Source of the DNA: Methanothrix sp.
GTDB taxonomy: Archaea; Halobacteriota; Methanosarcinia; Methanotrichales; Methanotrichaceae
Reading direction: 5' to 3'
Assembly (NCBI GenBank): GCA_963682135.1
Contig: OY821645.1
Span: forward strand, 2,432,001-2,496,000
Length of the DNA: 64,000 bases
A program made the position numbers and the translations under genes. Shown here in pieces: positions 23,648 through 53,481 of this stretch. The notes under the pieces are model-generated. The model saw only the letters and a list, made by a program, of their open reading frames with translations. It was not told where the DNA came from and searched no databases. Within the stretch, counting starts at the first letter, position 1; each line of letters opens with the position of its first letter.

Positions 23648-24256
23648 ACAGATGGCCGCATATTTGTTGTAGGCGATAAGCCCAGGCGAAAAAGCCGCAA
23701 GCGTGCCGATTACCTGCTTTGCTTTACACGTGATTTCAAGATCGCCGTTGTCGAAGCTAAAGCAAAATACAAGAGCCCAAGCGAAGGGCTGCAGCAAGCC
23801 AAAGAGTATGCACTGATGCTGGGGCTGAAATTCGCCTATGCCACCAACGGAGAAGGTATCGTCGAATTCGACTTCACCACTGGAAAGGAATGTTTTAGGG
23901 AAGCATTTCCTTCCCCGCAGGAGCTGTGGTCGCGATATTGCCGGGCATCAAAAATTGAGGACGAGCAGACCAAAGGACGAATTCTATCCCCCTACTACCA
24001 CTCGCCGGGAAAGGCTGCTCGCTACTACCAGGAGATTGCTATCAATCGATCGATTGAGGCCATACTGCAGGGCAAAAAGCGCGTTCTTCTGACCATGGCC
24101 ACGGGAACCGGCAAGACCTTCGTGGCCTTCCAGATCTGCTGGAAGCTTTGGGAGTCCGGCTGGAATGCGCGGGCCGAGAAGCGACGCCCTAGAATTCTCT
24201 ATCTGGCAGACAGGAATATTCTCATCGATGATCCCAAGGACAAGACTTTCACGCCC
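23648..24256 (+). pseudogene. hsdR: Type I restriction subunit HsdR (EcoAI/EcoEI-like) remnant, truncated at both ends
   Basis: TDGRI..RADYLL..AVVEAK..GLQQAKEYA nuclease motif, RYYQEIAI, MATGTGKT Walker A, LYLADRN; no start codon; breaks off at DDPKDKTFTP. Confidence 0.9.
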
Positions 24257-24342
24257 TCAAGCGCCAACATGGCAAGACCGCCGCCGCCCTGGATGCGCTC
24301 CTGCCAGCTGTGCTGGAGAGGGCCTTTCGGGGCGAGCTCTAG
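24251..24342 (+). repeat. hsdS 3'-end repeat, copy A1
   Basis: Encodes ALKRQHGKTAAALDALLPAVLERAFRGEL*; near-identical to 24637-24732 and 26605-26697. Confidence 0.93.
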
Positions 24343-24364
24343 GCCAAGATGCGGATATATAACC

Positions 24365-24634
24365 ATGAGGACTGAAATATCCATGATGAGTGAAGATGCC
24401 AGCATCGTCATCACAGTCGATGACATAAAGACATTTGAAAGGCTAAAGCTCATCTCACAGATGGCTCCTGTCAAAGAAATAATCAACTCCTTTAAGAGGA
24501 AGTACGGCTGCGGCCTCAAAGCATTCGAGGATCGAATAGCACGCCTTCCGGAGGACTTCGAGCGCTGGGACGATTTTATTGAGTGGAAGGCCTATGCAGA
24601 CAGCTTGAGAGATCTTGAAAAGAGAGAAATATAA
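24365..24634 (+). CDS. Small antitoxin-like protein (cassette A-1), possibly 3'-truncated
   Basis: ATG 24365 in the frame of the chimeric 23816 ORF; FKRKYG..FE..EDFERWDDFIEWKA motif typical of small archaeal TA partner proteins. Confidence 0.6.
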   Translation: MRTEISMMSEDASIVITVDDIKTFERLKLISQMAPVKEIINSFKRKYGCGLKAFEDRIARLPEDFERWDDFIEWKAYADSLRDLEKREI

Positions 24635-24636
24635 GG

Positions 24637-24732
24637 CTCGACGCCCTCAAGCGCCACCAGGCACAGACCGCCGCCGAGCTGGACGCGCTCCTTCCGGCTG
24701 TACTGGAGAGGGCCTTTCGGGGCGAGCTTTGA
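24637..24732 (+). repeat. hsdS 3'-end repeat, copy A2
   Basis: Encodes LDALKRHQAQTAAELDALLPAVLERAFRGEL*. Confidence 0.93.
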
Positions 24733-24779
24733 GGAAAAAGCTTACATCTTGCATTTGATGATACTATTACGAGGATCTC

Positions 24780-26078
24780 ATGGTTGAAGGAATCACGCGC
24801 ATCTCTGTGAAGGGTTTTAAGTCCCTGGCTGAAGAATGCTCCCTTGAAATTCGCCCTCTGACGATATTGGCAGGTGCTAACAGCTCAGGTAAGTCGAGCA
24901 TAATGCAGCCGCTCTTGATGATGAAGCAGACTCTGGAAGCGAGTTACGATCCAGGCCCGCTCTTGCTTGACGGTCCCAATGTTCGCTTCACATCAGCAGA
25001 TCAGTTTCTTTCTCGATCGGGTGGCCAAAACCAGGGGCAATTTAGCGTGGGGCTTGAGATCGATGGCGCGATTTCATTTTACGAAACCTTCATTCGCAAG
25101 GCGCAAGAAGGAATGGAGATCGCTGAAATATCATATAAAGTTAATAGCAAGACCACCATCCTACGGCCTGAAATGACACGAGACGTGATTATATCTCATC
25201 AACAGGAGAGAGGATTGCCTAAAGATTATCAAAATAAAAAGTCAGAGTTTCTTAGGGGCTCTCTTAAAATAGAACGGGATAGATGCTTTTTGGAGCAAAA
25301 ATTGAGAGGAGATATAGTATTAAGTTTTCGTGATTGTAATTTAAGATTAAATTTTTTTGGGTCGATTTTAAGTCTCGTTCATTTGCCCGCACTGCGAGGC
25401 AACCCCGAAAGAAACTATAAAAGGACCTCTGTTGGCCCCAGGTTTCCAGGAACCTTTGAGATTTATGCCGCCAGTATAATTCACAACTGGCAATCAACCA
25501 AAGATCCACGACTCAATTATATGGGAGCTGCCCTTGAATTACTGGGTTTGACCTGGAAGGTCGGCTCAAGACAGGTCGATGATGTGAGTTTTGAGGTGAT
25601 GGTCGGCCGTCTCATTCATCAAGAAGGAAAAGATACCAATGATTTAGTTAGCATTGCAGATGTTGGATTTGGTGTATCCCAAACCTTGCCGATTCTTGTC
25701 GCACTTCTTGCAGCAGAGCCTGGCCAGATGGTCTACATCGAACAGCCCGAGATTCACCTGCACCCGCGCGCCCAGATGGCAATGGCTCAGATCCTGGCGG
25801 AGGCTGCTAACCGGGGCGTCCGAGTCGTGGCGGAAACACATAGTTCCCTATTGCTCCTGGGCGTTCAATCTCTTGTAGCCGAAGGCAAGCTCTCTCCAGA
25901 TAAGGTCAAGCTTCATTGGTTTAAGAGAAGGCCGGAGGACGGCATTACAGAAGTCTCCAGCGCTGACTTAGACAAAGCAGGTGCCTTTGGCGATTGGCCG
26001 GAGGATTTCTCCTCGGCGGAGATGGACGCAGATACTCGTTATATTCATGCCGCGGAAACGAGACTGGAGTCCAATTGA
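24780..26078 (+). CDS. ABC-type AAA ATPase (AAA_15/AAA_21, DUF3696-like C-terminus), defence-associated (cassette A-2)
   Basis: Walker A GANSSGKS, GFGVSQTLP signature, IEQPEIHLHP, ETHS, C-terminal WPEDF. Confidence 0.88.
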   Translation: MVEGITRISVKGFKSLAEECSLEIRPLTILAGANSSGKSSIMQPLLMMKQTLEASYDPGPLLLDGPNVRFTSADQFLSRSGGQNQGQFSVGLEIDGAISFYETFIRKAQEGMEIAEISYKVNSKTTILRPEMTRDVIISHQQERGLPKDYQNKKSEFLRGSLKIERDRCFLEQKLRGDIVLSFRDCNLRLNFFGSILSLVHLPALRGNPERNYKRTSVGPRFPGTFEIYAASIIHNWQSTKDPRLNYMGAALELLGLTWKVGSRQVDDVSFEVMVGRLIHQEGKDTNDLVSIADVGFGVSQTLPILVALLAAEPGQMVYIEQPEIHLHPRAQMAMAQILAEAANRGVRVVAETHSSLLLLGVQSLVAEGKLSPDKVKLHWFKRRPEDGITEVSSADLDKAGAFGDWPEDFSSAEMDADTRYIHAAETRLESN

Positions 26079-26602
26079 TGTCATCTGGGGATTCAAAGCG
26101 GTTGGTCATTGACGCCTCCGTTGCTACATCTACTGGCGAGAGAGGTGTGCGGGGAGAACGGTGCCAGGCCTTCCTGAGGATTATGATTGATGATACATAC
26201 CATCGCTTGGTGATGACGCGAGAGATCGGTGCTGAATGGGATATACATTCTCATCCCTTTGCTCGCCGCTGGCGAAGAAGCATGAATGCCAAGAGAAGAG
26301 TCGATCGGCCAAATGTCGATCATGATGACGTATTTTGCCTGAAGATTGAAAGAGCAAGTCAAACTGAAAAGGCACTTTGCGCTATGAAGAAGGATCTTCA
26401 TCTCATACAAGCTGCAAAAACAACAGACAAACGTGTTATTTCTCTGGACGATACTGCCAGAAACTATTTTTCTGAAGTCTCAATCCAGGTGGGCGAGCTG
26501 AGGGACATTCTGTGGGTAAATCCTGTTAATGATGACGAGACGCCGACAAAATGGTTGACGGACGGGGCTCCGAACGAGGAGCAACGACGACTTGGCACAT
26601 GA
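26078..26602 (+). CDS. PIN-like protein translationally coupled to the ATPase (cassette A-2)
   Basis: TGATG overlap; LVIDASV N-terminus, KDLHLIQAA..VISLDD acidic PIN-type pattern. Confidence 0.65.
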   Translation: MSSGDSKRLVIDASVATSTGERGVRGERCQAFLRIMIDDTYHRLVMTREIGAEWDIHSHPFARRWRRSMNAKRRVDRPNVDHDDVFCLKIERASQTEKALCAMKKDLHLIQAAKTTDKRVISLDDTARNYFSEVSIQVGELRDILWVNPVNDDETPTKWLTDGAPNEEQRRLGT

Positions 26603-26604
26603 CC

Positions 26605-26697
26605 GACGCTCTCAAGCGCCACCAGTCCGAGACCGCCGCCGCCCTGGATGCGCTCCTGCCGGCTGTGCTGGAGAGGGCCTTTCGGGGCGAGCTTTGA
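26605..26697 (+). repeat. hsdS 3'-end repeat, copy A3
   Basis: Encodes DALKRHQSETAAALDALLPAVLERAFRGEL*. Confidence 0.93.
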
Positions 26698-26803
26698 AGT
26701 AGCCGCTCGCATCATTTTGCATTTCCGGGATTACTCCGCAAGAAGAATACTTTCGCCCGGCACGCGGTGAGCTTTTATGGCATTAACTCACTTGTCCCTT
26801 TGA

Positions 26804-27346
26804 ATGTTAAAACAAATGCAGCGAGACGCCATTTTGCTCTCGCTGATGAATGAGATGAGAGCAAAAGGCAGTTGGTGCGGCGAGACTCACATCCAGAAAT
26901 CTGTGTATCTCCTGCAAGAACTGCTGGATGTACCAATGAATCTCGAGTTCATACTCTACAAGCATGGACCTTACTCATTCGATCTGGCCGATGCAGTCAC
27001 CGCCATGCGGGCGGATAACCTGCTTGAGTATAAATTGCGTCGTCCCTACGGGCCAAGCCTTATCCCTACAAAAACAGGCCAGAATTTCCTGAATCAGTAC
27101 CCTAAGACGCAGGAGAAATACGCCGAAAGAGCGCAATTTGTTGCCGAGAAGATCGGGAAGATAGGTGTTGCAGAGCTGGAGCGTCTGGCCACTGCCCTTT
27201 ACGTCACACTCAACGAGAAATGTGCAGGAAATTCACGAGCAATCTTGATTACGAAGCTGAAGCCTCATATCAAAATCGAAGAGGCCGAAAAAGCTCTGGA
27301 AAACGTTGATGCCATGATAAAAGAGGTTGCTGAAAAAGGATTGTGA
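26804..27346 (+). CDS. YwgA/SocA(Panacea)-like wHTH protein (cassette A-3)
   Basis: ETHIQKSVYLLQE..FILYKHGPYSFDL..ELERLAT pattern. Confidence 0.6.
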   Translation: MLKQMQRDAILLSLMNEMRAKGSWCGETHIQKSVYLLQELLDVPMNLEFILYKHGPYSFDLADAVTAMRADNLLEYKLRRPYGPSLIPTKTGQNFLNQYPKTQEKYAERAQFVAEKIGKIGVAELERLATALYVTLNEKCAGNSRAILITKLKPHIKIEEAEKALENVDAMIKEVAEKGL

Positions 27347-27360
27347 AGTGGGCTGCATAC

Positions 27361-27571
27361 ATGAATTTCATGGTTGTTCTTTAGGAAGCAGAAGATGGTG
27401 GCTACATAGTAAGCTGCCCGGCACTTCCCGGATGCCGCTCCCAGGGCGATAGCATTGGAAGAAGCCTTGGAGAACATCAAAGAGGTGATAGAAGGCTGCG
27501 TGCAGTCTCTGGCGGAAGAGCGAACGAGGCTGCTGGGCGCTCCTGGTAGAATCGTAGAAGTAGCAGTCTGA
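27361..27571 (+). pseudogene. hicB: HicB-family antitoxin pseudogene
   Basis: MNFMVVL*EAEDGGYIVSCPALPGCRSQGDS, then a frameshift, then EEALENIKEVIEG..; one internal TAG and one frameshift. Confidence 0.8.
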
Positions 27572-27772
27572 TTTCCGATGCTGAAAATGGCAGACGCTGA
27601 TTCCTCCGAGATTTATATTGACTACAGGCCGTATTTCTTTCGCGTCTCGCTCCATGCCTTCTCTCTTGCGGTTTCCAGCTCCATCAGGTCATCCTTGGTA
27701 AGGGAAAGCTCCTCCTTGCATCTCTGAAGGATCACAGATATATCCTATTGCTGCCATAACGTCACCTTAGTT

Positions 27773-28761: not shown

Positions 28762-28831
28762 AAGGTCTGAGAGCTTTCCTTTCGAGGATCCTCTCTTCGA
28801 TTACCTTTATGGCATTTTTCTTCTTTTTCCA

Positions 28832-32221: not shown

Positions 32222-32224
32222 TCC

Positions 32225-36226: not shown

Positions 36227-37732
36227 CTATTCATCCACCGTAAAATACTCCGTCAGGATCTGACGATCATTTCGGGTAACATCTACATGAAATTCGTCAG
36301 ACGGAAGTTCCAGGTCCCACGTATCTCCATACAAGGTGCGGGTGTCTATGGAACACCAGATATTGTAGGATGGCCAATAACCTCCGCTTGGATTGGGGGG
36401 TATATCAATGGGGCCAACTCTATACGAGCTGCCATCTGGAGAATACCAGTACCAATAGAATGAAGCAGGTCCTGCATTGGCGAGGCTCACCCAGGAGTAG
36501 ACCTTGCTGTCGGTACTAAGGAAGAATCTGTCCGTTCTTGTGATCGGGCTGCGGGTGGCCTCGTCAATGTTGCTGGCCGTGCTATGATCAAGAATGCTGG
36601 TGCTGGATGTCTGTTCCTCATAACCGTTTTCGAGAGTAAATTGTTCCGTCAATTGCGTTACATAGGTAGGACCGATCAGGTAGACATTTACCTTCCAGTT
36701 TCCTGACAGGTAAGGCTCATCTGGTATATCTGCAATATCGATATAATACCAGATATTGTAAGTGGGCCAATGATCACCGTTGGGATTGGTAGGAATATCC
36801 GCAGAACCTGTCTTGTATAGGTTGCCATCCGGTGAATACCAATACCATTCTACTCTGCCGGGGGCAATATTTGCGAGGCTCACCCAGGAGTAAGCCTTAC
36901 TGTCGGCAGTGGTGAAATTGTAGGTTCTTGTGATCGGAATATGATTGGATTCGTCAACACTGCTTGCCATGCAGTGATCAAGAATGTGGGTGACAGGTGT
37001 GGCACTTGGGCTGCTGGTGGTCGTGTTGATCAAAGAGTGCATCCGTGTTGCCGTAGTCTCGGCCACCTCAGACTCTTCGCTGCCCAGGGCCTTTAGAGCA
37101 TCAGCTTTGCCGTTCCAGGCCTGCCAGATGTCGGCATTGTAGGGATCCAACCTGATAGCCTCATCGTAAGCGGTAATGGCCTCATCGTACTTGCCTTGAT
37201 TGTAGAGCTCAAGGCCTTCATTGATGCTCGTGGTTAAGTTTGTGCCAGGTGTAGCAATCGGACGGCCATTTAGTGTAATGGTCGCAGGCCTCCAGGTAGA
37301 GCCGCCAAATCCCAGCTCCTTTGCCCTGGTATAGGCCGCATCGGACTCGTTAGTTCGACCAAGTGCCTTTAGAGCATCGCCTTTGTAAGCCCAGGGGATG
37401 GCATTATTTGGCCATAGCTCTATGGCTTTATCATATGCTAAAATGGCCTGGTCGTATTTGCCCAGGCCATAGAGTGCATCGCCTTTGCCATTCCAGGCCT
37501 GCCAGGTCTGGGTACTGTTGGGATCTAGCTTGATCGCTGCATCGTAAGCGTTGATGGCCTCGTTGTATTTGCACTGATTGTAGAAATCGAGCGCTGTGTT
37601 AAGGGCCTTGTTGTATTGGGCTGAATTATCAAGATCAAAGCCGCTGAGGGTCCAGGTATTAGCAGTTGGCTGACATTGTGTGGGTACCATCAATACCAGC
37701 ATGAGAATAAAAACTATGCAGATCCCTCTCAT
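36227..37732 (-). CDS. Secreted TPR protein with two duplicated C-terminal beta-rich domains
   Basis: Signal peptide, TPR repeats (YDEAI.AYD.AI.LDP, WNGKG.AL), two copies of ILDH..PITRT..DSK.YSWVSLAN..WYWYSPDG..YNIW. Confidence 0.85.
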   Translation of the reverse strand: MRGICIVFILMLVLMVPTQCQPTANTWTLSGFDLDNSAQYNKALNTALDFYNQCKYNEAINAYDAAIKLDPNSTQTWQAWNGKGDALYGLGKYDQAILAYDKAIELWPNNAIPWAYKGDALKALGRTNESDAAYTRAKELGFGGSTWRPATITLNGRPIATPGTNLTTSINEGLELYNQGKYDEAITAYDEAIRLDPYNADIWQAWNGKADALKALGSEESEVAETTATRMHSLINTTTSSPSATPVTHILDHCMASSVDESNHIPITRTYNFTTADSKAYSWVSLANIAPGRVEWYWYSPDGNLYKTGSADIPTNPNGDHWPTYNIWYYIDIADIPDEPYLSGNWKVNVYLIGPTYVTQLTEQFTLENGYEEQTSSTSILDHSTASNIDEATRSPITRTDRFFLSTDSKVYSWVSLANAGPASFYWYWYSPDGSSYRVGPIDIPPNPSGGYWPSYNIWCSIDTRTLYGDTWDLELPSDEFHVDVTRNDRQILTEYFTVDE

Positions 37733-44007: not shown

Positions 44008-44035
44008 AGGGTGAGCAGCACAAGGGGCTCTTGGC

Positions 44036-44109
44036 GCCTCGATAGCTTAGCCCGGTATAGCGCGTCCTTGGTAAGGACGAGGTCGCGGGTTCGAATCCCG
44101 TCCGAGGCT
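44036..44109 (+). tRNA. tRNA-Thr(GGT)
   Basis: GCCTCGATAGCTTAG..CGTCC-TTGGTAA-GGACG..GGTTCGAATCCC..CGAGGC; A7-C66 mismatch. Confidence 0.9.
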
Positions 44110-44154
44110 TTAATTTTTTTTTGTTTTGATTGGCTTTATAGTGGGGGAGTTGAT

Positions 44155-44580
44155 ATGGATAAGAAATGCATATTGATTATTGACGATGATAGAGGCATAC
44201 TCGAGGGCTTCAAGCTAATCTTAGAGCGGAAAGGTTATCTAACTGATACGGCAGAGACCGGCAGTGAAGCCATAGAAAAGGTGCAAAGCAATTATTTTAA
44301 CCTGGCATTAATCGATACCAAGCTTCCTGATATGGATGGTACTGCTCTTCTCTCGGAATTTCGCCAGCTTAATCCGGAGATGAAAAAGATCATCATTACG
44401 GGTTTTTCCACTCGAGAAAATGCCATTCTATGCCTGAACCTGGGGGCAGACGCATATTTAGAAAAGCCTGTAACTCCTGGAAAATTGCTGGAGTTCGTTG
44501 CAGCGAAATTGGCAGAACAGGAATATGAGATCAAGTATCATGAGGATACTGTGAATAAGTTGCTCCAATCTCGCAAGTAA
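44155..44580 (+). CDS. Single-domain response regulator (receiver)
   Basis: ILIIDDD, LIDTKLPDMDG, ITG, KP; ATG 44155 after GGGGGAG (the track start overlaps the tRNA). Confidence 0.9.
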   Translation: MDKKCILIIDDDRGILEGFKLILERKGYLTDTAETGSEAIEKVQSNYFNLALIDTKLPDMDGTALLSEFRQLNPEMKKIIITGFSTRENAILCLNLGADAYLEKPVTPGKLLEFVAAKLAEQEYEIKYHEDTVNKLLQSRK

Positions 44581-44606
44581 TTTTATTAACCTAAATAATA
44601 TACAAA

Positions 44607-44786
44607 TCCTCCGTCAGCCCATAAAGCCGGGACCCCGTCGATCAGCCCGTCCGTGGCCTCGATCTGGCGCAGCAGGGCAGTTTTTTCGTGAGGAGTGCCG
44701 GCTTGGGGGAGCCGCTTGTGCGAGAAGCGAGCAATCTCTGCACCAGGGAGACCATGCGGTCATGACGAGCGATGTCGGCGGGATCC
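44607..44786 (-). repeat. Type IIG R-M 3'-end repeat, copy B1 (distal, truncated)
   Basis: CCGTCAGCCC..TCGATCAGCCCGTCCGTGGCCTCGATC..GGCAGTTTTTTCGTGAGG..CACCAGGGAGACCATGCG core shared with B2-B7. Confidence 0.9.
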
Positions 44787-44844: not shown

Positions 44845-46575
44845 CCCAACCTCCCGGATCAAGTAGACACATTAACCGGTCGATCTCAATTATAAAGCTC
44901 CTATTTTGAAAAACAACCCTGACTAAGCCCACTTAGCGAAAGATATTTATACTATATGCGCCTACTATTATTGAGGCGCATAATGCAAACCACTCGACGA
45001 ATCAAAGTGAAAAATGGGATCGAATATTGGTACGAAGAAACACCTTACTATGACAAGGAGAAAAAACAGATCAGACATAAATCAAAATATTTAGGAAGAA
45101 ACGTAGATGGCCAGCCGGTCCGGATGCGTTCCGCCCCTGACGAGGTCAAAGAGAAGACGAAAAAGAAAACAGAGGCGATCAAGTCATCATTTGATTATGG
45201 CTCCATATTCGTTCTTCAGTCAATTATGGAAGAGCTTCATATGGATCGCTATCTGGAAGTTTTGTTGTCTCCTTCGGAAGTGTCCATGGTTCGCGCATTG
45301 GCATTTAACCGGATTATACGACCTACTGCAATGAGGAATGTAGATTCATGGTACGAAGGAACCTCTCTTGCCCTCGAATCTCCGCAAATCAATCTTACCA
45401 GTCAGCGAGTAAGTGAGCTTCTCGGTCGATTGGGTGAAAGCAATATTCCAGACAGATTCATGTCCCAGCTTATCGAAGGAACCGGTACGAAAGACACACT
45501 CATTTACGATATTACGAGCCTGTCAAGTTACTCTCAACTCATCAATATTCTTGAGTACGGGTACAATCGTGATGGCGAGTCTCTTCCGCAAATCAATCTG
45601 TCCCTGATTCTGGATAAGGATAAAGGGATACCCGTGATGTATGACATCTTCCCCGGCAGTATTTCCGATGTCAGTACGCTTTCCGGCACTCTAAAAAAGA
45701 TAAAAGCGCATGGCATCCAAAATTATGTTGCTGTGATGGATTGTGGATTTTTCAGCTTGAGCAACCTTCGCGAGCTGATGACGAATAAAATCTCATTTAT
45801 TATGGCGGCCAGATTGCAGTTGAATGATTTGAAGCACCTGCTGACGGAAGTGCAAAAGGATCTTGATGATGTAAAATATCTCCACAAGTTTAACAAGGAT
45901 CCCATTTTTGCCAAACCAATTTCATATATTATTGATTCAATTGAAATCAGGGGGTATGTTTATTATGATCCCAAATTAGAGCAAACCGAGAAGCAGACAC
46001 TCCTAAGCAGACTCTATGATATTCGTGAAGAGTTGCTCAAGGTGCGCTTGAATAAGAACAGTAACCCCCACGTAGTTTTCAAAGATAAAGCACACGGATT
46101 TGGAAACTTCTTCGACTGGAATGTTATGGATAATCGCTTTGAAGTTACGATAAAACAAAACGCAGTTGCACAAAGAATGAACAAAATGGGCAAGTATATT
46201 ATATTCTACTCAGGAAACTTTGACGAGATGAAGTGCCTTTCTCTCTATCGCGAACGCGATGAAATTGAAAAGAGCTTCAAGGCATTGAAAAGCGAAATTG
46301 ACATCCTTCCATTGAATACTCATGGCGAAGAGACAACAAGAGGATTCATTTTTATCGCTTTCCTGAGTCTGATTATAAGGTCACGACTGATAAATATGAT
46401 GAAGGATGCAGAGATACTAGACAAATATTCTGTTGAACTTCTTCTGCTGCAATTGGAGAAATTAAGAAAAATTGCTCTTGCAGACGGACAGATAATAGTC
46501 ACCGAAATGACAAAAAAACAGAGGGAAATTCTTCAGGCGCTAGACTTGTGCGCCTGAACTTTTCGGGAGGTTGGG
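44845..46575 (+). mobile_element. IS1634-family insertion sequence
   Basis: Perfect 12-bp TIR CCCAACCTCCCG (44845-44856 / 46564-46575) and 6-bp TSD ATCAAA (44839-44844 / 46576-46581). Confidence 0.92.
44956..46557 (+). CDS. IS1634-family DDE transposase (start may be 44983)
   Basis: YDITS, YGYNRD..LPQIN, D.GF, YRERDEIEKSFKALK. Confidence 0.9.
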   Translation: MRLLLLRRIMQTTRRIKVKNGIEYWYEETPYYDKEKKQIRHKSKYLGRNVDGQPVRMRSAPDEVKEKTKKKTEAIKSSFDYGSIFVLQSIMEELHMDRYLEVLLSPSEVSMVRALAFNRIIRPTAMRNVDSWYEGTSLALESPQINLTSQRVSELLGRLGESNIPDRFMSQLIEGTGTKDTLIYDITSLSSYSQLINILEYGYNRDGESLPQINLSLILDKDKGIPVMYDIFPGSISDVSTLSGTLKKIKAHGIQNYVAVMDCGFFSLSNLRELMTNKISFIMAARLQLNDLKHLLTEVQKDLDDVKYLHKFNKDPIFAKPISYIIDSIEIRGYVYYDPKLEQTEKQTLLSRLYDIREELLKVRLNKNSNPHVVFKDKAHGFGNFFDWNVMDNRFEVTIKQNAVAQRMNKMGKYIIFYSGNFDEMKCLSLYRERDEIEKSFKALKSEIDILPLNTHGEETTRGFIFIAFLSLIIRSRLINMMKDAEILDKYSVELLLLQLEKLRKIALADGQIIVTEMTKKQREILQALDLCA

Positions 46576-46900
46576 ATCAAAGCATCCTGAGACATTGAAG
46601 ACAAACCACTGATCGAATCGTCATAATCAGCTCTATTACGATGATTTCGCAAACGCCTTAATTCTAAGGCCAGTTTCCTTCCATTACTTCTTTTGCCCAA
46701 GCAGTAGAGCTGGCTAATGACATAACTATGGACGCTTTCATCGGGAATGATCTTATGCTCCTCATCTCTAAGATGGTTTCTAGCGGTACAAAAGGCCGCG
46801 TAGTATGCCCTGCTGATTGATGAGCGAAGCCTTGCCTCATCTTTCTCGTCGGATGATGCCAGACTTTTTGCCAGGCTCAAGTAGCGACACCATTCGAAGC

Positions 46901-47233
46901 CTATTCGTACTCCACCTGGATGAGCAGCTTAGAGTCTGACGCATCTGAGACATTGAGCAACCAATTATCGTCCAGTTGATCCAATTTATCAATGGCATCT
47001 TGCGGTGATAGATCGGTGCAGATATAGACGACCAACTGTTTGTCGCCGATCTCGTCTGGATCAGTCACTACTTCTAAGAATAGGATCTCTGAAGGGAAAA
47101 AATTTCGTATTCGACTGTAGGCCTCCATTAGCAAAGGCAAAAGATGCGGATTGCTGCCAACAAAGTCGTACACATCTGCCGCGGTCTTCAGTGTATACTT
47201 GTTATTTAGGTGTACCATGTCATGATTTCGCAT
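46901..47233 (-). CDS. Hypothetical partner protein upstream of HEPN (antitoxin-like)
   Basis: ATG 47233 after GAGGAG; directly abuts the HEPN gene. Confidence 0.65.
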   Translation of the reverse strand: MRNHDMVHLNNKYTLKTAADVYDFVGSNPHLLPLLMEAYSRIRNFFPSEILFLEVVTDPDEIGDKQLVVYICTDLSPQDAIDKLDQLDDNWLLNVSDASDSKLLIQVEYE

Positions 47234-47358
47234 GGTATCTCCTCGGTCTCCAACATCCGCCTCAGTGATCATCAGAATTCCTCTTCGTCGGCATGAAATA
47301 AATAGATTTCATCGGCAAATCAGTCTGCCATATCCAGGGTGTCTACCTGGGACTTCCG

Positions 47359-47514
47359 CTTCCCCAATCCCGATCTCCTCTTCCGGCAGACCGTAAAGCT
47401 GGTCTCCCGTCGATCAGCCCGTCCGTGGCCTCGATCCGGCGCTGCATGGCAGTTTTCTCGTGAGGCTTGGCAGCTTCGGGGAGCTGTTTGTGCGAGAGCG
47501 AGCATTTTATCCAC
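47359..47514 (-). repeat. Type IIG R-M 3'-end repeat, copy B2
   Basis: Same core; reads DKMLA.., frameshifted. Confidence 0.9.
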
Positions 47515-47590
47515 TTTGGATTATCATTTTAACGATCGCAAGGTTAAAATTGCTGCAACCCATTAGTAGGAATAGGGGGAATAGTGCACT

Positions 47591-47851
47591 GTGCCGTTTA
47601 CCAAAGTTGATGAAAAAGGCAGAATGGTTCTACCTAATGAAATCAGGCGCAAGATGAAGATCTCACCTGGTGATGAATTTGTTGTGGACGAGGTCGGGCC
47701 GGACACAATTCTAATTAGAAAAGTGGATGTAAGATCCATGATTCATGATGCGATTGAGCGTGCCAAGTCTGTAGACCTCGATAAGCTCCAAAAAGAGATG
47801 GACGAAGAGGGAAACAGAGTTGCCAGAAAGATGTACAAGGTTCTTGATTGA
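47591..47851 (+). CDS. AbrB/MazE-family antitoxin (VapB)
   Basis: TKVDEKGRMVLPNEIRRKMKISPGDEF. Confidence 0.9.
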   Translation: MPFTKVDEKGRMVLPNEIRRKMKISPGDEFVVDEVGPDTILIRKVDVRSMIHDAIERAKSVDLDKLQKEMDEEGNRVARKMYKVLD

Positions 47852-48233
47852 CTCCAATCTATTTATTGCGGCGGTAAAGAGCGGTTGGACGAATAGTTCA
47901 AAGCTTCTCTCTGTCCTCCTGGATGGCTCTTTCGAATTGGTTGCAAACAAATCTTTGTTTGCGGAGTATGAGAAGTATGCTCAGCAACTTGATGCACAAT
48001 ATATCTTCTATTACATGAAAAGCAGGATTATTTTGACTGATCAGTCCGAAAACGAGGTGCAGAGATGCAAGCCATTCTTTCCTGAAAGTCAGGCCGCTGA
48101 TGTGGTTCATGCTGCAACCTGTCTTCATACCGCAGCGGTCTTAATCACAAATGATAAACATTTTGATAAAATAAGAGATGCAGGCCTCATAAGAGTTTGG
48201 AGCATCTCCGAGGCTATTAAGAATCTACTTTGA
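47820..48233 (+). CDS. PIN-domain toxin (VapC); start may be TTG 47844
   Basis: FLIDSNLF, ADVVHAATCL, LITNDKHF. Confidence 0.88.
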   Translation: MPERCTRFLIDSNLFIAAVKSGWTNSSKLLSVLLDGSFELVANKSLFAEYEKYAQQLDAQYIFYYMKSRIILTDQSENEVQRCKPFFPESQAADVVHAATCLHTAAVLITNDKHFDKIRDAGLIRVWSISEAIKNLL

Positions 48234-48265
48234 ATATCTCAAACTGAATTATCTTCAACCATGTT

Positions 48266-48500
48266 CTATCCTGCATCTTCCACAATCCTGATCTCCTCTT
48301 CAGTCAGCCCGTATAGCTCGTAGACCAGCGCGTCGATCTGTCCGTCCGTGGCCTCGATCTGCCGCTGCAGGGCAGTTTTTTCGTGAGGCATGGCAGCTTC
48401 GAGGAGCTGTTTATGCAGGGCGAGCATCTTCTCCACCAGGGAGACAAGCGAATCGTGGCGGGCGACGTCGGCGGGGTCGGAGAAAGCGATGGTGCGGATT
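48266..48500 (-). repeat. Type IIG R-M 3'-end repeat, copy B3 (longest, frame intact)
   Basis: IRTIAFSDPADVARHDSLVSLVEKMLALHKQL..EKTALQRQIEATDGQIDALVYELYGLTEEEIRIVE, the typical C-terminus of Eco57I/TaqI-like fused R-M enzymes. Confidence 0.92.
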
Positions 48501-48578
48501 AGGAAAATTTCTGCTTGAAATATTTCATGGGTCGCGTAGGTCCAGACTGTTGCAGTTCTCGGCAAGTTGGCAAAAGAA

Positions 48579-48872
48579 TTAGATTTTGAGCTTGCCCCTT
48601 GCCTCCAGCAAAGACACTAAACTCTCTGCTGACATAGGACATTCTATCAGATCATCGAGTTCGCGGATCGACTCAAGATGCAACTCTTTTTTCATAGCAT
48701 TCAAGAGTCGATCCTCGTATTCATCCAGGCCGTGACTGATCCAAGTAAATATGCTGGTCTTTTTTCCACTAACATATAATGTATATTTTATATGTTTTGA
48801 TTTGCCTTTTTTTGGAGAGAATCCTTTTTTCGTCAGAGATGCTACGATCTTCCTGGTCTTATACGCTGGCAT
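48579..48872 (-). CDS. HicA-like toxin
   Basis: SLTKKGF..SKHIKY..TWISHG.. dsRBD-like HicA pattern; overlaps the upstream gene. Confidence 0.7.
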   Translation of the reverse strand: MPAYKTRKIVASLTKKGFSPKKGKSKHIKYTLYVSGKKTSIFTWISHGLDEYEDRLLNAMKKELHLESIRELDDLIECPMSAESLVSLLEARGKLKI

Positions 48873-49923
48873 TTGACTTTTCTACTCCAAACGAGGCGAT
48901 CAATTCCTTTCGAAAATCCATAGCATCCCGGCTAAGCAGTTCGAGGCCGGTTTCCACATAATCTTCCCATAGAATTTCTATTTCTTCGTTCAAATCTTCA
49001 ATTGCAGCCTTGAGGGTCGAGCCATATCCTCGCAAATGGAACTTATCATTTGAGACCCAATATTGATCATCCTCGTAGATCACTTCAAGCAAAATAGGCA
49101 CCTTCAAATTCAGCGATCTTCCCTTCATTCTGATCTTATCCAACGGCACCAATTCCAGATACTCGATAGATTTTTCGTTCACCAGGCGGAGGGCATACTT
49201 GCCTCCCTTCTCCAGTGCCATTATGCCTCTAATGAGAACCAAACGACCAATATTTTCAATGATCCTGTCTTCAAGGTCTTGGGCATATGTACAGGTAACT
49301 ACGCCTTCAAAAGTATCTATTTGAAAGCTCCTTCTCTGATCTACCCTCACTTCCATCAGTCGTCCAACAACTGATTTCTCAACGTTTTCCGGCTGCCTGG
49401 AAAGCACATTTCGAAATACATGCTTATGAGATGGCTGCAACCTCATTATGTCATGTTTTCCAAAGCCAAGACCAACATTATATTCAGATTGCTCATCCGG
49501 CCATATCGCATCAAGCTCATGAAGTACTCTAGTAAGCCGATGCTCATTTTTCATAGTCTCTGAAAGCGCGTGGGCAATATCCCTCTCTTGGGAGACGTTG
49601 ACAAGGATTTTATCCGCGATCAAAAGTGCCTTTTCACCATAAGTCACACCGCCGGGAAGACACATCTGCGAATCCGAAATCATCAATTCAGCTTCGACGC
49701 TACCGATATGCATTCCACTGATGACCAGTTCAGCTTTCTCCTTAACACTGTTTGGGAAATCCCCTGCTTTGCGTGTAGGGTTTCCTTCCAGCTCATCAAT
49801 GATATAAAAAAGAATATTCTGCAATCTCTGAAATATTCCTGCTACAAAAAGGGCTGAAATTTGACCATTATTCCTGGTCTTTGACTCAACTAACAATTTT
49901 ATCCGTTTAGTTTCATCGCCCAT
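48859..49923 (-). CDS. 354-aa protein with C-terminal HicB-like domain
   Basis: C-terminal YWVSND..RGYGSTLKAAIEDLNEEI..WEDY resembles the HicB RNase-H-like core. Confidence 0.6.
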   Translation of the reverse strand: MGDETKRIKLLVESKTRNNGQISALFVAGIFQRLQNILFYIIDELEGNPTRKAGDFPNSVKEKAELVISGMHIGSVEAELMISDSQMCLPGGVTYGEKALLIADKILVNVSQERDIAHALSETMKNEHRLTRVLHELDAIWPDEQSEYNVGLGFGKHDIMRLQPSHKHVFRNVLSRQPENVEKSVVGRLMEVRVDQRRSFQIDTFEGVVTCTYAQDLEDRIIENIGRLVLIRGIMALEKGGKYALRLVNEKSIEYLELVPLDKIRMKGRSLNLKVPILLEVIYEDDQYWVSNDKFHLRGYGSTLKAAIEDLNEEIEILWEDYVETGLELLSRDAMDFRKELIASFGVEKSNASV

Positions 49924-50000
49924 AGGTCCACCGTTTATTTATGCCCTTATTTCTACATATCCTTATCGTTTCAGTTTCTGAAAGTTCTTTATTGAAGTTT

Positions 50001-50190
50001 CTACTTGTTCGCCTTCTCCACAATCCCGATCTCCTCTTCCGTCAGCCCGTAAAGCCGGAACCCCGTCGATCAGCCCGTGCGTGGCCTCGATCTGTCGCTC
50101 CAGGGCAGTTTTTTCGTGAGGCGTGGCAGCTTCGGGGAGCTGTTTATGCGAGAAGCGAGCATTCTCTCCACGAGGGAGACCATGCGATAT
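50001..50190 (-). repeat. Type IIG R-M 3'-end repeat, copy B4
   Basis: Same core; ends ..GLTEEEIGIVEKANK*. Confidence 0.9.
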
Positions 50191-50197
50191 GCCATTT

Positions 50198-50584
50198 TTA
50201 GTTCTGTTTTCCCACAGATCTCACAACATTGATAAAATCTTCGATTTGAATATTCGAGATGTCAAGCGCGGCAAGAAGCCCTTCATCATCCATTAAGCGC
50301 TTCATCAGCCGTCTCGTGACCTCTGAGTCGTATGCTTTATCGTGATGATCCAAATTTATAAACACGACGGCGTTTTCAAAAATTAAATAAACGACAACGA
50401 AGTGCTCTGAAATATGTAATGCTCTCAGTCCTCTGAGATTATGGCTCTTGGGCTCGCCTATCTCTGGATTTTGCCGAATACACTTCATTTTATTTATTAC
50501 TTGAAGCTTAAACGTTCTATTTTTACCAGTTAATTTAGAAAATTTCTTGTCAAAATAACCGGTAGTAATGGATTTAAATGCCAT
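50198..50584 (-). CDS. RelE/ParE-family toxin
   Basis: FDKKFSKL..NPEIGEPK..LRGLRALHI..FVVVY..LDHHDKAY. Confidence 0.85.
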   Translation of the reverse strand: MAFKSITTGYFDKKFSKLTGKNRTFKLQVINKMKCIRQNPEIGEPKSHNLRGLRALHISEHFVVVYLIFENAVVFINLDHHDKAYDSEVTRRLMKRLMDDEGLLAALDISNIQIEDFINVVRSVGKQN

Positions 50585-50603
50585 TTGTGATCAAAATTGA
50601 GAT

Positions 50604-50777
50604 TTATAGGCGCATCAAGTGGGCTTCCATCTCCTCGTCATCCTCAAAGACTGTGTAGCGTCCCCCAGCAAAATCCTTTAGACCTTTCACAATACCTTCA
50701 ATGAAGTCTTCCTCTTTCTTTGCTTCTTTATTTGGGATAACTTCCATTTCTGCATTAAGAGGATGTGAACATGCCAT
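50604..50777 (-). CDS. 57-aa putative RelB-like antitoxin (absent from the ORF track)
   Basis: MACSHPLNAEMEVIPNKEAKKEEDFIEGIVKGLKDFAGGRYTVFEDDEEMEAHLMRL*, directly upstream of relE. Confidence 0.7.
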   Translation of the reverse strand: MACSHPLNAEMEVIPNKEAKKEEDFIEGIVKGLKDFAGGRYTVFEDDEEMEAHLMRL

Positions 50778-50975
50778 GCTCTTATGATATCGTCATGATC
50801 GTATTTAAATCCATTGTGCTCTGAGGGCTTTGCTGCATCTCTCCCAATGTTATCCTTCTAGTTTATGCATCTGCAAATATTCGTATTGGAAACCAACATC
50901 ATCCTCATCAAGGCAATCTATTTCTTCCTTATCACGGCGTCGGTCTGTCGTGCCTCGTTTTTCATTGAGTCGCTT

Positions 50976-51157
50976 TCGCCTCCACAATCCCTATCTCCTC
51001 CTCCGTCAGCCCGTATAGCTCGTAGACCAGGGCATCGATCTGCCCGTCCGAGGCTTCGATCCGGCGCTGCAGGGCAGTTTTCTCGTGAGGCGTGGCAGCT
51101 TCGGGGAGCTGTTTATGCGAGATGCGAGAAATCTTTGCACCAGGAGGGCCATGAGAT
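50976..51157 (-). repeat. Type IIG R-M 3'-end repeat, copy B5
   Basis: Same core; ..GQIDALVYELYGLTEEEIGIVE. Confidence 0.9.
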
Positions 51158-51186
51158 CCGCTATCAATCGTTTCTCAAGTTCATAA

Positions 51187-51594
51187 TCATAATAGATTCA
51201 TCAGTTCTCTTGTGGTAAAAACTTTGACGACATCCTGCCTCTTGAAATGTCCATCGTTGCTCCAGATCGGACAGTCTAAATACATTGCCAGAGCCAGGAA
51301 TGGAGAGTCATCGATATCAATTTCAGACATCACTTCAATTGCACTATCTTTGAAGGGGGCCAAGTCTTCAAGAGGGATAAAACTGATTTTGCTGAAGATA
51401 AAATCTTTTAAATAATCAAAGGACTTTTCATCTAGCTTTGACTTGGATAATAATTCGTCTTTGTGTCTTTCTATCTCACGATTGGCATATTCAACTGTAT
51501 ACATTTTAAAAGGTGATACGGATATTATATCTCTGGTCAAACCATTCCTTAGGAGAGAAGATATCAGGATATTCGTATCCGGCACTATCTCCAT
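51187..51594 (-). CDS. PIN-domain toxin (VapC)
   Basis: VPDTNILISSL, DIDDSPFLALA, IWSNDGHF. Confidence 0.9.
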   Translation of the reverse strand: MEIVPDTNILISSLLRNGLTRDIISVSPFKMYTVEYANREIERHKDELLSKSKLDEKSFDYLKDFIFSKISFIPLEDLAPFKDSAIEVMSEIDIDDSPFLALAMYLDCPIWSNDGHFKRQDVVKVFTTRELMNLL

Positions 51595-51824
51595 CCTAAT
51601 TTCTCCATTATTTCCCGCTTCATCTTGTGGTCTAATTCATTCACGTCATCTTCAGAAAGATCGCTTTTTTCCAGGAGCGTGTCAAAAATTATTGAAATGA
51701 ATATATCATTTTTTATATCTTCTAGAATATCCCGCTCTATTCTTTTTCGCACTAGTGCATCCAAATCTCTGTTGGCCTTTATCGATAACTCAATCTCTCG
51801 GGGAAGCTCAACTTCTATCGACAT
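51585..51824 (-). CDS. Antitoxin (VapB-like)
   Basis: Acidic 79-aa ORF overlapping the PIN start; LLEKSDLSEDDVNELDHKMKR tail. Confidence 0.75.
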   Translation of the reverse strand: MSIEVELPREIELSIKANRDLDALVRKRIERDILEDIKNDIFISIIFDTLLEKSDLSEDDVNELDHKMKREIMEKLGWR

Positions 51825-51864
51825 TTTATTGCCCGTATCCTAAATGCTGGAAAAGAATATAAAA

Positions 51865-52062
51865 CTACTTGCTCGCCTTCTGCACAATCCCGATCTCCTC
51901 TTCCGTCAGCCCGTACAGCCGGTCCCCCGTCGATCTGCCCGTCCGTGGCCTCGATCTGGCGCTGCATGGCCGTCTTCTCATGAGGCGTGCTGGCTTGGGG
52001 GAGCTGCTTGTGCGAGAAGCGAGCAATCTCTGCACCAGGGAGACCATGCGATCATGACGGGC
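51865..52062 (-). repeat. Type IIG R-M 3'-end repeat, copy B6
   Basis: ARHDRMVSLVQRLLA..(shifted frame)..LYGLTEEEIGIVQKASK*. Confidence 0.9.
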
Positions 52063-52549
52063 TAGCATTCCAAAGACCTATCGTTTCCCGCGCATCTTTC
52101 AGCGATACAATTTTGAGCTGAAAGCCATATGGAACCTGATAGTTCAGAAGAATTTTGTCGGTGGTTATGAGGTAATTCATATTATACGCCAGAGCATAAC
52201 CAAGATGAGTACGATCAGTTGGCTGCAATCGATCTTTGCATTCGTCCACAAGATGCCAGCAGACTTCAGCTACCCTATTTGTAGGCGGCAGGAATCTGAT
52301 ATCAAGTTTCCTCCATAGCTCGATCAAAGAGGCAATCGTCTCCATTTTGTGAGGATCGCTTCCCTCTTTTTCGCGAGTCAGACTCTTAAAAACAGTTTCT
52401 GCAAGCACTGAGAATGGGACACAAAGCTCCAGCGTGGGGTGATTATCGATGTGGTCGAGAAGGCCGATTGCAAGCTGCGACTTTCTATCTTTTTTTTCAG
52501 TGCTAACAGAATAAAAGAAGATATCAGCGTCTATGGCAACGTGATTCAT
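52052..52549 (-). CDS. PIN-domain toxin
   Basis: VAIDADIF, E, DRTHLGYAL, LITTD. Confidence 0.85.
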   Translation of the reverse strand: MNHVAIDADIFFYSVSTEKKDRKSQLAIGLLDHIDNHPTLELCVPFSVLAETVFKSLTREKEGSDPHKMETIASLIELWRKLDIRFLPPTNRVAEVCWHLVDECKDRLQPTDRTHLGYALAYNMNYLITTDKILLNYQVPYGFQLKIVSLKDARETIGLWNASPS

Positions 52550-52704
52550 TTCTTGCCAAAAGCCTTCTCTATTCTTTCCTTCGTCGCCTTATCTTCTTCT
52601 TCGGTAACAGCCCATACGATCCTGCCGTTGATATCCACAGCACCGCCGTAAGGCAACTGATTCTTGTCCGAGTCATAGATCTGCCCGACTACATATTCTG
52701 CCAT
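52546..52704 (-). CDS. 52-aa putative antitoxin (absent from the ORF track)
   Basis: MAEYVVGQIYDSDKNQLPYGGAVDINGRIVWAVTEEEDKATKERIEKAFGKK*; ATGA overlap with the PIN gene. Confidence 0.65.
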   Translation of the reverse strand: MAEYVVGQIYDSDKNQLPYGGAVDINGRIVWAVTEEEDKATKERIEKAFGKK

Positions 52705-52776
52705 TCATTTCCTCGATCTGAGTTTGGCTTTTTTCGATAATATAGTTTTCGCCGGTTCATTTGTCTGCCTGCGATC

Positions 52777-52979
52777 CTTCTACGATTCTTATCTCCTATT
52801 CCGTCAGCCCGTACAGCTCGTAGACCAGGGCATCTATCTGCCCGTCCGTGGCTCGATCTGTCGCTACAGGGCAGTTTTTTCGTGAGGCGTGGCAGCTTCG
52901 GGGAGCTGTCTATGCAAGGCGAGCATCTTCTCCACCAGGGAGACAAGCGAATCGTGGCGGGCGACATCGGCGGGGTCGG
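52777..52979 (-). repeat. Type IIG R-M 3'-end repeat, copy B7 (proximal)
   Basis: DPADVARHDSLVSLVEKMLALHRQLPE..; degenerate, with stops and a frameshift. Confidence 0.9.
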
Positions 52980-53045
52980 TGCAGAATGGGAGCAGCTATG
53001 ATACGGGATCAAGAAATGGATATACAGACTTTCGACTATGATTTT

Positions 53046-53161
53046 ACCACAAAGGCACAAAGCTCACAAAGAACGCACAAAGACTAATCGGCAAAATATA
53101 TCCTAACCAGAATTTAATAATTTTCTTTGTGAGTCCTTTGTGCGCGTTGTGTCTTTGTGGT
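53046..53161. repeat. Imperfect inverted repeat built from tandem CACAAAG units (REP-like)
   Basis: ACCACAAAG-GCACAAAG-CTCACAAAG-AACGCACAAAG, ~40-nt spacer, then CTTTGTGAG-TCCTTTGTGCG-CGTTGTGT-CTTTGTGGT. Confidence 0.8.
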
Positions 53162-53259
53162 GATAGTAGTAGTAAGTACTAACACCCCATCCTGCCAAAA
53201 TATATTTGACAATTATGATACTAATTTCCTTCGACATCGACTGCCTCCTCCTCTTTGAC

Positions 53260-53481
53260 CTATCTCTTGTCGGCCCGGCATTCCTGCTTGTGGTAGACAT
53301 CCCAGCCCAGCGCCTCAAAAAAGGGATTGATGAACTCCGTTCTCAGCTCGGTCTCATTGTACTGACTGGATCGATAGATGTCCTGGTCACGCTCGAACTT
53401 CTCCATCAGCTCGAGGATCTTTGCTGGTGCCTGTGCTTGTGTCGGTGCCTCTGCCTGCAATTTCTTTGCCCTCCGGCGCAC
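53260..53481 (-). pseudogene. N-terminal remnant of a type IIG (Eco57I-like) R-M enzyme
   Basis: APAKILELMEKFERDQDIYRSSQYNETELRTEFINPFFEALGWDV, then a premature stop. Confidence 0.8.

Follow-up and report, generated by a model that had tools for sequence, protein, structure and literature searches.

In loci of the Rhs and contact-dependent inhibition (CDI) systems newer modules push older ones downstream, and the displaced orphans retain a conserved piece that permits homologous exchange. Arrays of such orphan toxin-immunity modules, formed by C-terminal displacement in Rhs and CdiA, were reportedly described by Jackson et al. in 2009, integron cassette arrays, including archaeal ones, by Ghaly et al. 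in 2022, and insertion with long target duplication by Nobusato et al. in 2000. Genes for RhuM, Fic/DOC and HEPN proteins are linked to restriction-modification (R-M) genes. In an insertion with long target duplication, a gene block without transposon or integrase features is bounded by direct repeats, tens to hundreds of bases long, that represent the duplicated target, and such insertions are tied to R-M loci in many phyla (Furuta, Abe and Kobayashi 2010, PMC2853133). At the tvr locus of pneumococci, which belongs to the SpnIV type I R-M system, circles excise between terminal repeats of hsdS and re-integrate, the segments encoding target recognition domains (TRDs) are shuffled and specificity is thereby altered, and the locus carries the gene for a dedicated tyrosine recombinase, TvrR (Kwun et al. 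2018, PMC6265443). PrrC is embedded in the EcoprrI R-M operon (PMC12707154, a 2025 review). The window analysed here, 64,000 nucleotides (nt) of Methanothrix sp. (assembly GCA_963682135.1, contig OY821645.1, positions 2,432,001 to 2,496,000, forward strand), contains two arrays, A and B, in which toxin-antitoxin and other genes alternate with short co-oriented copies of an R-M gene's 3' end, here called the tail: that of type I hsdS in array A and that of a type IIG gene in array B. On balance, we consider that both are probably stacks of defence-gene cassettes built on the conserved R-M 3' end by tail-anchored insertion and displacement, rearranged by homologous shuffling and gene conversion, and eventually deprived of their R-M genes by microhomology-mediated deletion.

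The arrays share with Rhs/CDI loci the co-orientation of downstream orphans (21 downstream, none upstream), the anchoring of the orphans at their 3' ends and the retention of a conserved piece, in this case the tail only. In Rhs/CDI systems, however, the protein end and the immunity gene vary and the conserved piece is an internal core, whereas here the protein is unchanged, independent downstream genes vary (PIN, ParE, Mrr, Gabija and others, with no alternative R-M domains between the tails) and the conserved piece is the extreme 3' end. The geometry of a putative tail-anchored insertion has an analogue in Rhs displacement. It has another in long target duplication (PMC2853133). In that class the flanking direct repeats exceed 30 bp and form a single sequence at the empty site; here direct repeats of 95-210 nt flank every cassette, and a matching empty site was not found. 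As in that class, the cargo scans revealed no transposase, integrase or terminal inverted repeats belonging to the inserts; one insertion sequence (IS) in the last cassette of the window and an IS605 TnpB in the comparison locus L052 are passengers only. Unlike in long target duplication, where R-M genes are the cargo and any host sequence may be the target, here the R-M 3' end would be the target, the cargo comprises toxin-antitoxin and defence genes, and the event would have been iterated into arrays of up to 7-8 copies. Integrons are similar in having small, mostly co-oriented, repeat-closed cassettes that are rich in toxin-antitoxin genes and variable in order, and different in that our arrays have no adjacent IntI, no attI and no hairpin attC (0 of 9 tails fold), the repeat being a fragment of a coding sequence. 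Direct repeats of the hsdS end and toxin-antitoxin homologs inside the locus are also features of tvr (PMC6265443), whereas in our arrays the DNA between tails contains no TRDs, the tails have no linked recombinase, and the R-M genes are sometimes absent altogether. RhuM, Fic, HEPN proteins and AAA ATPases beside R-M genes recall the R-M-embedded accessory genes, for which a duplicated R-M end acting as a seam is not mentioned in the portion of the review at hand (PMC12707154). Among the titles and abstract openings surveyed, and in the passages of that review at hand, we found no description of R-M tail repeats as cassette seams.

Array B occupies the minus strand. Comparison of the window with itself (blastn) reveals seven co-oriented repeats of ~180-210 nt between 44589 and 52977 (E 9e-33 to 3e-77), all of which were re-detected by nhmmer (E 1e-54 to 1e-60). 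Their translations share the C-terminus ...HKQLPEAATPHEKTALQRQIEATDGQIDALVYELYGLTEEEIGIVE, with which intact type IIG enzymes of 1036-1069 amino acids (aa) end in relatives (e.g. the 1063-aa protein of L049, matched by the PADLOC model REase_MTase_IIG with E 1e-267 over residues 25-1055). The window itself holds only a series of orphan tails and a stump of ~85 codons, whose identity to the opening ~300 nt of intact genes is 83-89% (84-89% for the gene starts in L049, L050, L051 and L052). Frameshifts or stops break most of these (5-6 of the 7), and a fully open frame is found only in copy T5. A 2-nt insertion and a 5-nt deletion (the "+2/-5" lineage) are common to four of the seven; copy T3 has the insertion and lacks the deletion, and is therefore a mosaic of two tail lineages. 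Read from the R-M stump outwards, and with clusters of related cargo proteins given as c numbers, the array consists of:

about 53225-53481, minus strand: start of the type IIG R-M gene, left as a stump of ~85 codons that contains an in-frame stop and has a weak HSDR_N match
52978-53224, minus strand: mini-cassette without a convincing gene, homologous to the DNA that follows the R-M stop codon in L050 and L054
52778-52977, minus strand: tail T1 (blastn, nhmmer)
52052-52549, minus strand: cargo, PIN-domain protein (c4; Pfam PIN, E 6.4e-7); cassette also in L049, L050, L051, L055 and L057
51881-52076, minus strand: tail T2, +2/-5 lineage
51187-51824, minus strand: cargo, 79-aa protein and PIN_2 toxin (c9, c10; PIN_2, E 1.1e-26); also in L049 and L051
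50980-51178, minus strand: tail T3, mosaic
50198-50584, minus strand: cargo, ParE/RelE-type toxin (c3; ParE_toxin, E 2.3e-5)
50016-50194, minus strand: tail T4, +2/-5 lineage
48579-49923, minus strand: cargo, 354-aa protein of no family and 97-aa HicA-like protein (HicA_toxin, E 0.0064, below the Pfam cut-off)
48278-48499, minus strand: tail T5, the longest copy, delimited as 48278-48477 among the seven repeats, inside a 99-aa open reading frame (ORF) at 48266-48565
47591-48233, plus strand, opposite to the array: cargo, MazE/AbrB antitoxin and PIN toxin (c12, c11)
47360-47571, minus strand: tail T6, +2/-5 lineage
44956-47272: cargo, 123-aa protein and weak-HEPN protein (minus strand; HEPN, E 0.0031, weak) and an IS with a DDE transposase (plus strand; DDE_Tnp_1, E 5.4e-14)
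44589-44785, minus strand: tail T7, 3'-truncated, which closes the array on its distal side; the flank beyond it is orthologous to L057

The c11+c12 cassette is 91% identical in L052 and 86% identical in L051. The mini-cassette next to the stump contains a hairpin, with 38-nt arms (53046-53083 and 53124-53161) that are 87% complementary and carry CACAAAG heptads (RNA fold z -5.7). It was found after the R-M stop codon in L050 and twice in L054, an arm occurs at 24 other places of the genome, partly clustered near 592-597, 938-939, 1436-1439 and 2814-2817 kb, and contigs assembled from sequencing runs carry copies with other loops; the hairpin at 53046-53161 may be one copy of a dispersed palindromic element.

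Array A runs along the plus strand and comprises three ~95-nt copies (blastn; 84-90% mutually identical), each of which encodes ...ALKRHQ..TAA.LDALLPAVLERAFRGEL followed by a stop codon. The frame is open in all three, and no start codon precedes any of them. This sequence ends the intact HsdS proteins of 391-403 aa in the hsdR-hsdM-hsdS operons of relatives; for instance, the 398-aa protein of L099 that ends with the tail matches PF01420 (E 8.7e-17) in the gene order hsdR(781)-hsdM(513)-hsdS. Of the type I system the window retains only the tails and an hsdR fragment, which is 75-89% identical to hsdR in the operons L099, L094, L107 and L102. The features (cargo clusters numbered with a) are:

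23648-24257, plus strand: 5' fragment of type I R-M hsdR, roughly codons 45-240 of ~780 (Pfam ResIII, E 6.7e-16)
24251-24341, plus strand: HsdS tail A1, encoding ALKRQHGKTAAALDALLPAVLERAFRGEL, then a stop codon
24352-24634, plus strand: cargo 1, small ORF of ~90 aa (a1/a36), itself of no family; its partner gene is absent here
24636-24732, plus strand: HsdS tail A2
24780-26078, plus strand: cargo 2a, NsnB-like AAA_21/AAA_15 ATPase (Pfam E 1.2e-26 and 1.2e-24; PADLOC NsnB, E 1.2e-57)
25994-26602, plus strand: cargo 2b, partner of the ATPase, 202 aa (a3), no family
26604-26700, plus strand: HsdS tail A3
26804-27346, plus strand: cargo 3, 180-aa protein (a4) without a Pfam family, 75% identical to L094 10865-11377

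Relatives of cargo 1 are paired with a gene for a TumE-family toxin in L100 and L093 (TumE at L100:9515-9868, E 1.6e-22), the ATPase and its partner also stand behind an intact hsdS in L099, and the relative of cargo 3 in L094 matches PADLOC DarG (E 3.3e-11). In eight other loci the relatives of cargo 3 come after an HD-domain protein (a2), which is missing from the window; if this pair is a toxin-antitoxin-like module, the window retains only one half of it. Four cargo ORFs of the two arrays have no assigned family.

The preliminary description of this DNA had proposed that a type I and a type IIG locus converge on one layout with unrelated repeats. This is borne out by the seven array B and three array A co-oriented tails behind R-M stumps, and by the lack of any cross-match between the two repeat families. 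Its further statement, that a 5' R-M fragment is followed by a lost interior and then by the system's own 3' end, holds for array A, where the hsdR sequence passes into tail A1 with an overlap of 5-7 nt. It fails for array B, where the stump is joined not to its own tail but to DNA ordinarily located behind the stop codon, as it is in L050 and L054, namely the hairpin mini-cassette. The array B joint falls within a patch with 20 of 29 nt identical, in which the 5' part of the gene (KEEEAVDVEG) resembles the tail (TEEEIGIVEG). Both joints look like microhomology-mediated deletions. The cargo was said to be toxin-antitoxin genes, which describes PIN, ParE, MazE/AbrB and others and leaves out Gabija, Mrr, an HD/DarG-like pair, RhuM, Fic and ApeA, which also occur as cargo here or in the loci treated below. 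A working R-M gene may also be damaged in another way: in L054 (G004:C1, 4021-7062 as oriented) the gene is split into parts of 784 and 218 aa and ends in a tail of the +2/-5 lineage, as could result from conversion by an orphan tail.

The genome to which the window belongs is a single contig of 3.04 Mb. It has five more copies of the type IIG tail at three other places, one of which ends an intact gene, a 1308-aa paralog, and no HsdS tail beyond the three in the window. The remaining four form two pairs of orphans without an R-M gene, at C1:1109117-1109966 (L016) and C1:1158771-1162609 (L017); the flanks of L016 match those of L055, where an intact 1068-aa gene stands. As L016, L017 and the window all have arrays and no R-M gene, this genome has lost the type IIG family everywhere and kept the tails. 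Altogether, R-M genes were lost and arrays kept at four of its loci.

Within the genus, apparently Methanothrix, the type IIG tail was matched in 21 of 24 genomes, and 2-7 co-oriented tails are present in 11 of 16 mapped sources (15 loci and the window), five of which (L049, L050, L051, L053 and L055) have an intact gene of 1036-1068 aa directly upstream. One flank of array B (left, with a hydantoinase gene) is common to L049, L051, L054 and L059, and the other (right, with a response regulator and glycosyltransferases) to L057; therefore the window represents the orthologous site from which the R-M gene was lost. The cassettes are modular. Those designated c4, c9+c10, c3, c11+c12 and c21 reappear in different orders: hairpin, c4, c9+c10, c3, the HicA-like cassette, c11+c12 and the HEPN cassette in the window; c3, c4, c9+c10, c11+c12 and c21 in L051; hairpin, c4 and c3 in L050; and c11+c12, Mrr, c21 and c3 in L052. 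They occupy two chromosomal sites with different flanks (c5 versus c19/c20), the second being that of L050 and L052. Other cargo of the type IIG arrays in the genus includes Mrr, MazF, a GNAT protein and the IS605 TnpB.

The HsdS tail was matched in 39 of 59 genomes of the genus, 17 of which have at least two co-oriented hits within 4 kb on one contig; three of the 17 were left uncounted, since their lone pair, spaced 630-690 nt, could be what remains of a single decayed hsdS, one hit for its central and one for its distal conserved region. Cargo other than hsdS lies between the tails in 13 of 19 mapped sources, including three (L094, L099 and L102) behind hsdR-hsdM-hsdS operons, with hsdS of L094 split into two ORFs. 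This cargo comprises the NsnB-like ATPase pair, the HD-domain protein with a DarG-like partner, a TumE-family pair, PIN_2 and, in L102, Gabija (GajA E 6e-168, GajB E 4e-71). Six HsdS sources, the window among them, share one site between haem-synthesis genes and a DUF1638/thioredoxin pair. Neither TRD homology nor a recombinase was found between the tails of the 13 cargo-bearing arrays, a check that left out pairs spaced ~600-690 nt, on which three genomes depend entirely.

Comparable arrays, which the preliminary description expected elsewhere, exist in many archaeal and bacterial genomes. A profile of eight type IIG tails matched 164 of 401 genomes of the phylum, pairs of tails following an intact gene were evident in other families and genera too, and the layout was present in all 14 loci chosen for showing tail pairs. 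A scan with one genome per species yielded 80 loci, mostly bacterial, which are the best-scoring matches to a Methanothrix-derived profile and not a random sample; among the 65 with at least 1.5 kb of downstream sequence, 21 have at least two co-oriented tails including an orphan, and eight have at least three (four in L158, from Anaerolineales). By group, multi-tail loci make up 7 of 10 in Methanotrichaceae, 3 of 9 in other Archaea and 11 of 46 in Bacteria. Where an orphan accompanies a tail that ends a long ORF, it lies downstream in 21 cases and upstream in none. Ten cargo proteins from these bacterial and archaeal loci were scanned: four matched RhuM (E 3e-112), ApeA-HEPN, DUF488 and Fic (E 2e-16), there were weak matches to Swt1-HEPN and DuOB, and the remaining four had no match.

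The specificity for the tail and for the downstream side can be judged from an internal control. The final 70 aa of the R-M gene were re-found downstream in 13 of the 38 loci where it is intact, and upstream in none, whereas each of five other 70-aa segments of the same genes was re-found in 0 of 38, both downstream and upstream. Orphans are anchored at the 3' end, with 41 of 54 pieces reaching the end of the model, and their 5' starts are spread (17 at position 5 or before, 23 at 6-30 and 14 beyond 30). This bears on the alternative that every orphan tail is a scar marking the place of a once complete R-M gene, which had brought downstream genes of its own before it was deleted. Such serial turnover would agree with the interior R-M deletions, of which the window has two and other loci of the genome two more, and with the coding-type substitution pattern kept in HsdS orphans. 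Random deletion should, however, leave other parts of the gene as well, and the tail-only re-finding together with the 3'-anchored orphans argues against scars of random whole-gene deletion. Within the genus, moreover, no type IIG orphan reaches more than ~222 nt into the 3.2-kb gene, and no 5' stumps were found between type IIG tails in the mapped sources. We therefore regard serial turnover as unlikely.

The sharp 3' boundary of the repeats at ...GGGATTGTGGA (IVE) and the regular arrays of small, promoter-bearing cassettes in varied order might instead suggest a site-specific recombination system, integron-like or of the Xer type and acting in trans, with its core site inside the tail; a tyrosine recombinase does act on the terminal repeats of hsdS in the pneumococcal tvr locus (PMC6265443). 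Yet the four matches to the tyrosine recombinase family PF00589 in the genome, at 912 kb, at 1635 kb and, as two pieces, at 2807 kb, are all at least about 200 kb from any tail locus, and there is no recombinase among the scanned cargo or flanks. None of nine tails folds as single-stranded DNA better than its shuffles (z -0.23 to +1.20), the 5' starts of the orphans are spread, and the breakpoints of mosaics differ, so that this explanation, too, seems to us quite improbable.

Still less credible is a single ancestral tandem duplication of the tail, amplified by slippage and followed by random insertion of unrelated genes. The clustering of tails by genome and the two indels common to four of the seven window tails would fit it; however, the same cargo and junctions are found in other species and at other array positions, two unrelated R-M families have the design, distant bacteria have orphan tails with other cargo, and both tail lineages are trans-specific. 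This reading is disfavoured. Of the two outcomes that the preliminary description had named as refuting its idea, neither was observed: comparable arrays do exist in other genomes, and one local duplication followed by random insertion does not fit the cargo-tail junctions that recur across genomes, the varying orders and the use of two chromosomal sites. The idea that the tails are real small genes, or regulatory or terminator elements selected for cargo expression, which could appeal to T5 in its open 99-aa ORF, to the open frame and stop codon of all three HsdS tails and to a motif resembling a B recognition element (BRE) and TATA box behind many tails, can hardly be maintained given that 5-6 of 7 type IIG copies are frameshifted or interrupted by stops, 22 of 41 HsdS orphans have indels, no fold signal is seen and no start codon precedes the HsdS tails. 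The motif itself, CG(R)CGAAA(A/G)..CT.T(T/A)(T/A)A, is situated ~20 nt past the stop codon of many tails and before differing cargo (in the window at ~52740-52760 on the minus strand, and in L050, L051, L052, L054, L055 and L059). It resembles the archaeal BRE/TATA promoter consensus, and each cassette may accordingly have its own promoter.

Tails evolve in concert. In the tree of 42 tails from the genus they group by genome (24 changes, where shuffles average 31.9 and 0 of 500 are as low), a result that is descriptive only, as the genomes are kin. A clade of 16 tails from seven loci constitutes the frameshifted +2/-5 lineage, and both tail lineages are trans-specific; dead tails have therefore been copied and inherited across species. 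The first two tails of L055 and of L016 have a common private signature and nevertheless keep the ancestral cargo junction, which indicates gene conversion. The bases after ...IVE, stop codon included, co-vary with the downstream cargo, and the junction from c4 into the next tail is identical in five other genomes. In HsdS orphans the differences from the consensus are distributed over codon positions 1:2:3 as 105:103:195, compared with 25:8:57 in the tails of intact genes, and this third-position excess, together with the indels in 22 of 41 orphans, implies divergence partly under coding constraint and partly by decay. A first selection of HsdS tails by regular expression was biased to intact copies and was replaced; the codon-position analysis of type IIG tails was dropped, since the profile built from the window carries frameshifts and its phases are unreliable.

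These observations establish the anatomy of the arrays, its recurrence, the tail and downstream specificity, the modular cassettes, the concerted evolution of tails and the deletion joints. From them we infer the following course of tail-anchored insertion, for which the enzymes and any selective role of the cargo are hypothetical. A cassette would extend from just past the last conserved tail codons, through a short leader and the cargo genes, to a further tail copy. DNA containing a tail and a downstream gene would enter the cell either as a linear molecule, with one homologous anchor and one illegitimate end, or as a circle cut out between two tails. Recombination inside the resident tail would then restore the R-M 3' end and displace the old tail downstream as a 5'-truncated orphan, and repetition of this step would stack the cassettes. 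The tails could further act as portable homology for excision, re-insertion, unequal exchange and gene conversion, by which cassettes would be reshuffled within and between R-M loci and tails homogenised within a genome. The R-M genes of this particular genome would later have been destroyed by microhomology-mediated deletions, while the stacks stayed.

Several results weigh against this reconstruction. We found no pair of near-identical genomes that differ by one cassette, and no insertion event was caught; in the search for an empty site, L059 proved to have both flanks of L051 with ~4.8 kb of unrelated genes between them and no bare tail. Tails show no co-variation with the cargo on either side: for upstream cargo the tree has 18 changes and shuffles average 18.3, with 259 of 500 as low; for downstream cargo the values are 15 and 16.6, with 64 of 500 as low. 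Therefore the claim that a tail arrives with its cargo comes down to the few junction bases. The dead lineage shows that many tails were propagated as non-coding DNA and were not captured from working R-M genes. Arrays of HsdS tails are seen within Methanotrichaceae only; outside the family we detected scattered orphans in four other genera (two in genome G261 and one each in G399, G151, G309 and G353). Many double hits in that search mark the central and the distal conserved region of an intact hsdS and were not taken as arrays. The counts within the genus come from related genomes and are not independent, and the broader scan has the selection bias stated above. The preliminary description had suggested that incoming DNA with a tail and cargo may duplicate the tail each time. 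The tail and downstream specificity (13 of 38 against 0 of 38) speaks for this part of its idea; clustering of the 42 tails by genome, and not by upstream or downstream cargo, does not support it, and the sharing of the dead +2/-5 lineage does not suit it either. That host recombination is the pathway at work, and that addictive toxin-antitoxin cargo stabilises the arrays, are hypothetical parts of its proposal. Its idea as a whole is partly supported.

In viral contigs a related tail was found at 15 loci and a second copy in 0 of 15, with no sign of viral cassette carriage. In four sequencing runs, short assembled pieces end at tails and none spans two cassettes; joints in the runs (e.g. 47441>48453, 50054>52791 and 47493>44727) have sides of 23-35 letters inside the repeat and are uninformative on excision, circles or variants. 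Runs X19 and X21 match unique segments without differences; they may come from the source strain and do not constitute independent support.

It is possible, and we put it forward tentatively, that R-M 3' ends of both kinds, type IIG and hsdS, provide a general integrase-free docking platform across Archaea and Bacteria, from which tail-bounded cassettes of defence and toxin-antitoxin genes excise, spread between genomes and re-insert at any homologous R-M tail, and which assembles, reshuffles and keeps in register many islands that outlive the R-M gene. Only some defence islands owe their assembly to integrases, transposons or phage satellites. A seam formed by the conserved R-M 3' end would give the host an uncomplicated way of its own to stack and exchange defence genes. 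Its footprint, co-oriented orphan tails downstream of R-M genes, is searchable and could reveal new defence genes and help to date how an island was built up. Scraps annotated as "restriction enzyme, partial" are common in genome annotations, and the seam would account for such short pieces. The present case adds the convergence of two unrelated R-M families in one genome, a tail and downstream specificity with an internal control, and the persistence of arrays after all the founding R-M genes had decayed.

No RNA family of Rfam was matched in either array; the only hits in the window, four tRNAs and a ribosomal leader, lie outside them. One tRNA gene (44036-44109, plus strand, 59.8 bits) is located ~480 nt from the distal end of array B, with a response-regulator gene between them; the start of the latter is probably near 44155, given that the listed ORF (44011-44580) overlaps the tRNA. 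An ORF of 501 aa at 36227-37732 on the minus strand contains three families of direct repeats of ~60-130 nt at a spacing of 378-393 nt, which suggests a protein with internal repeats of ~130 aa that is unrelated to the arrays.

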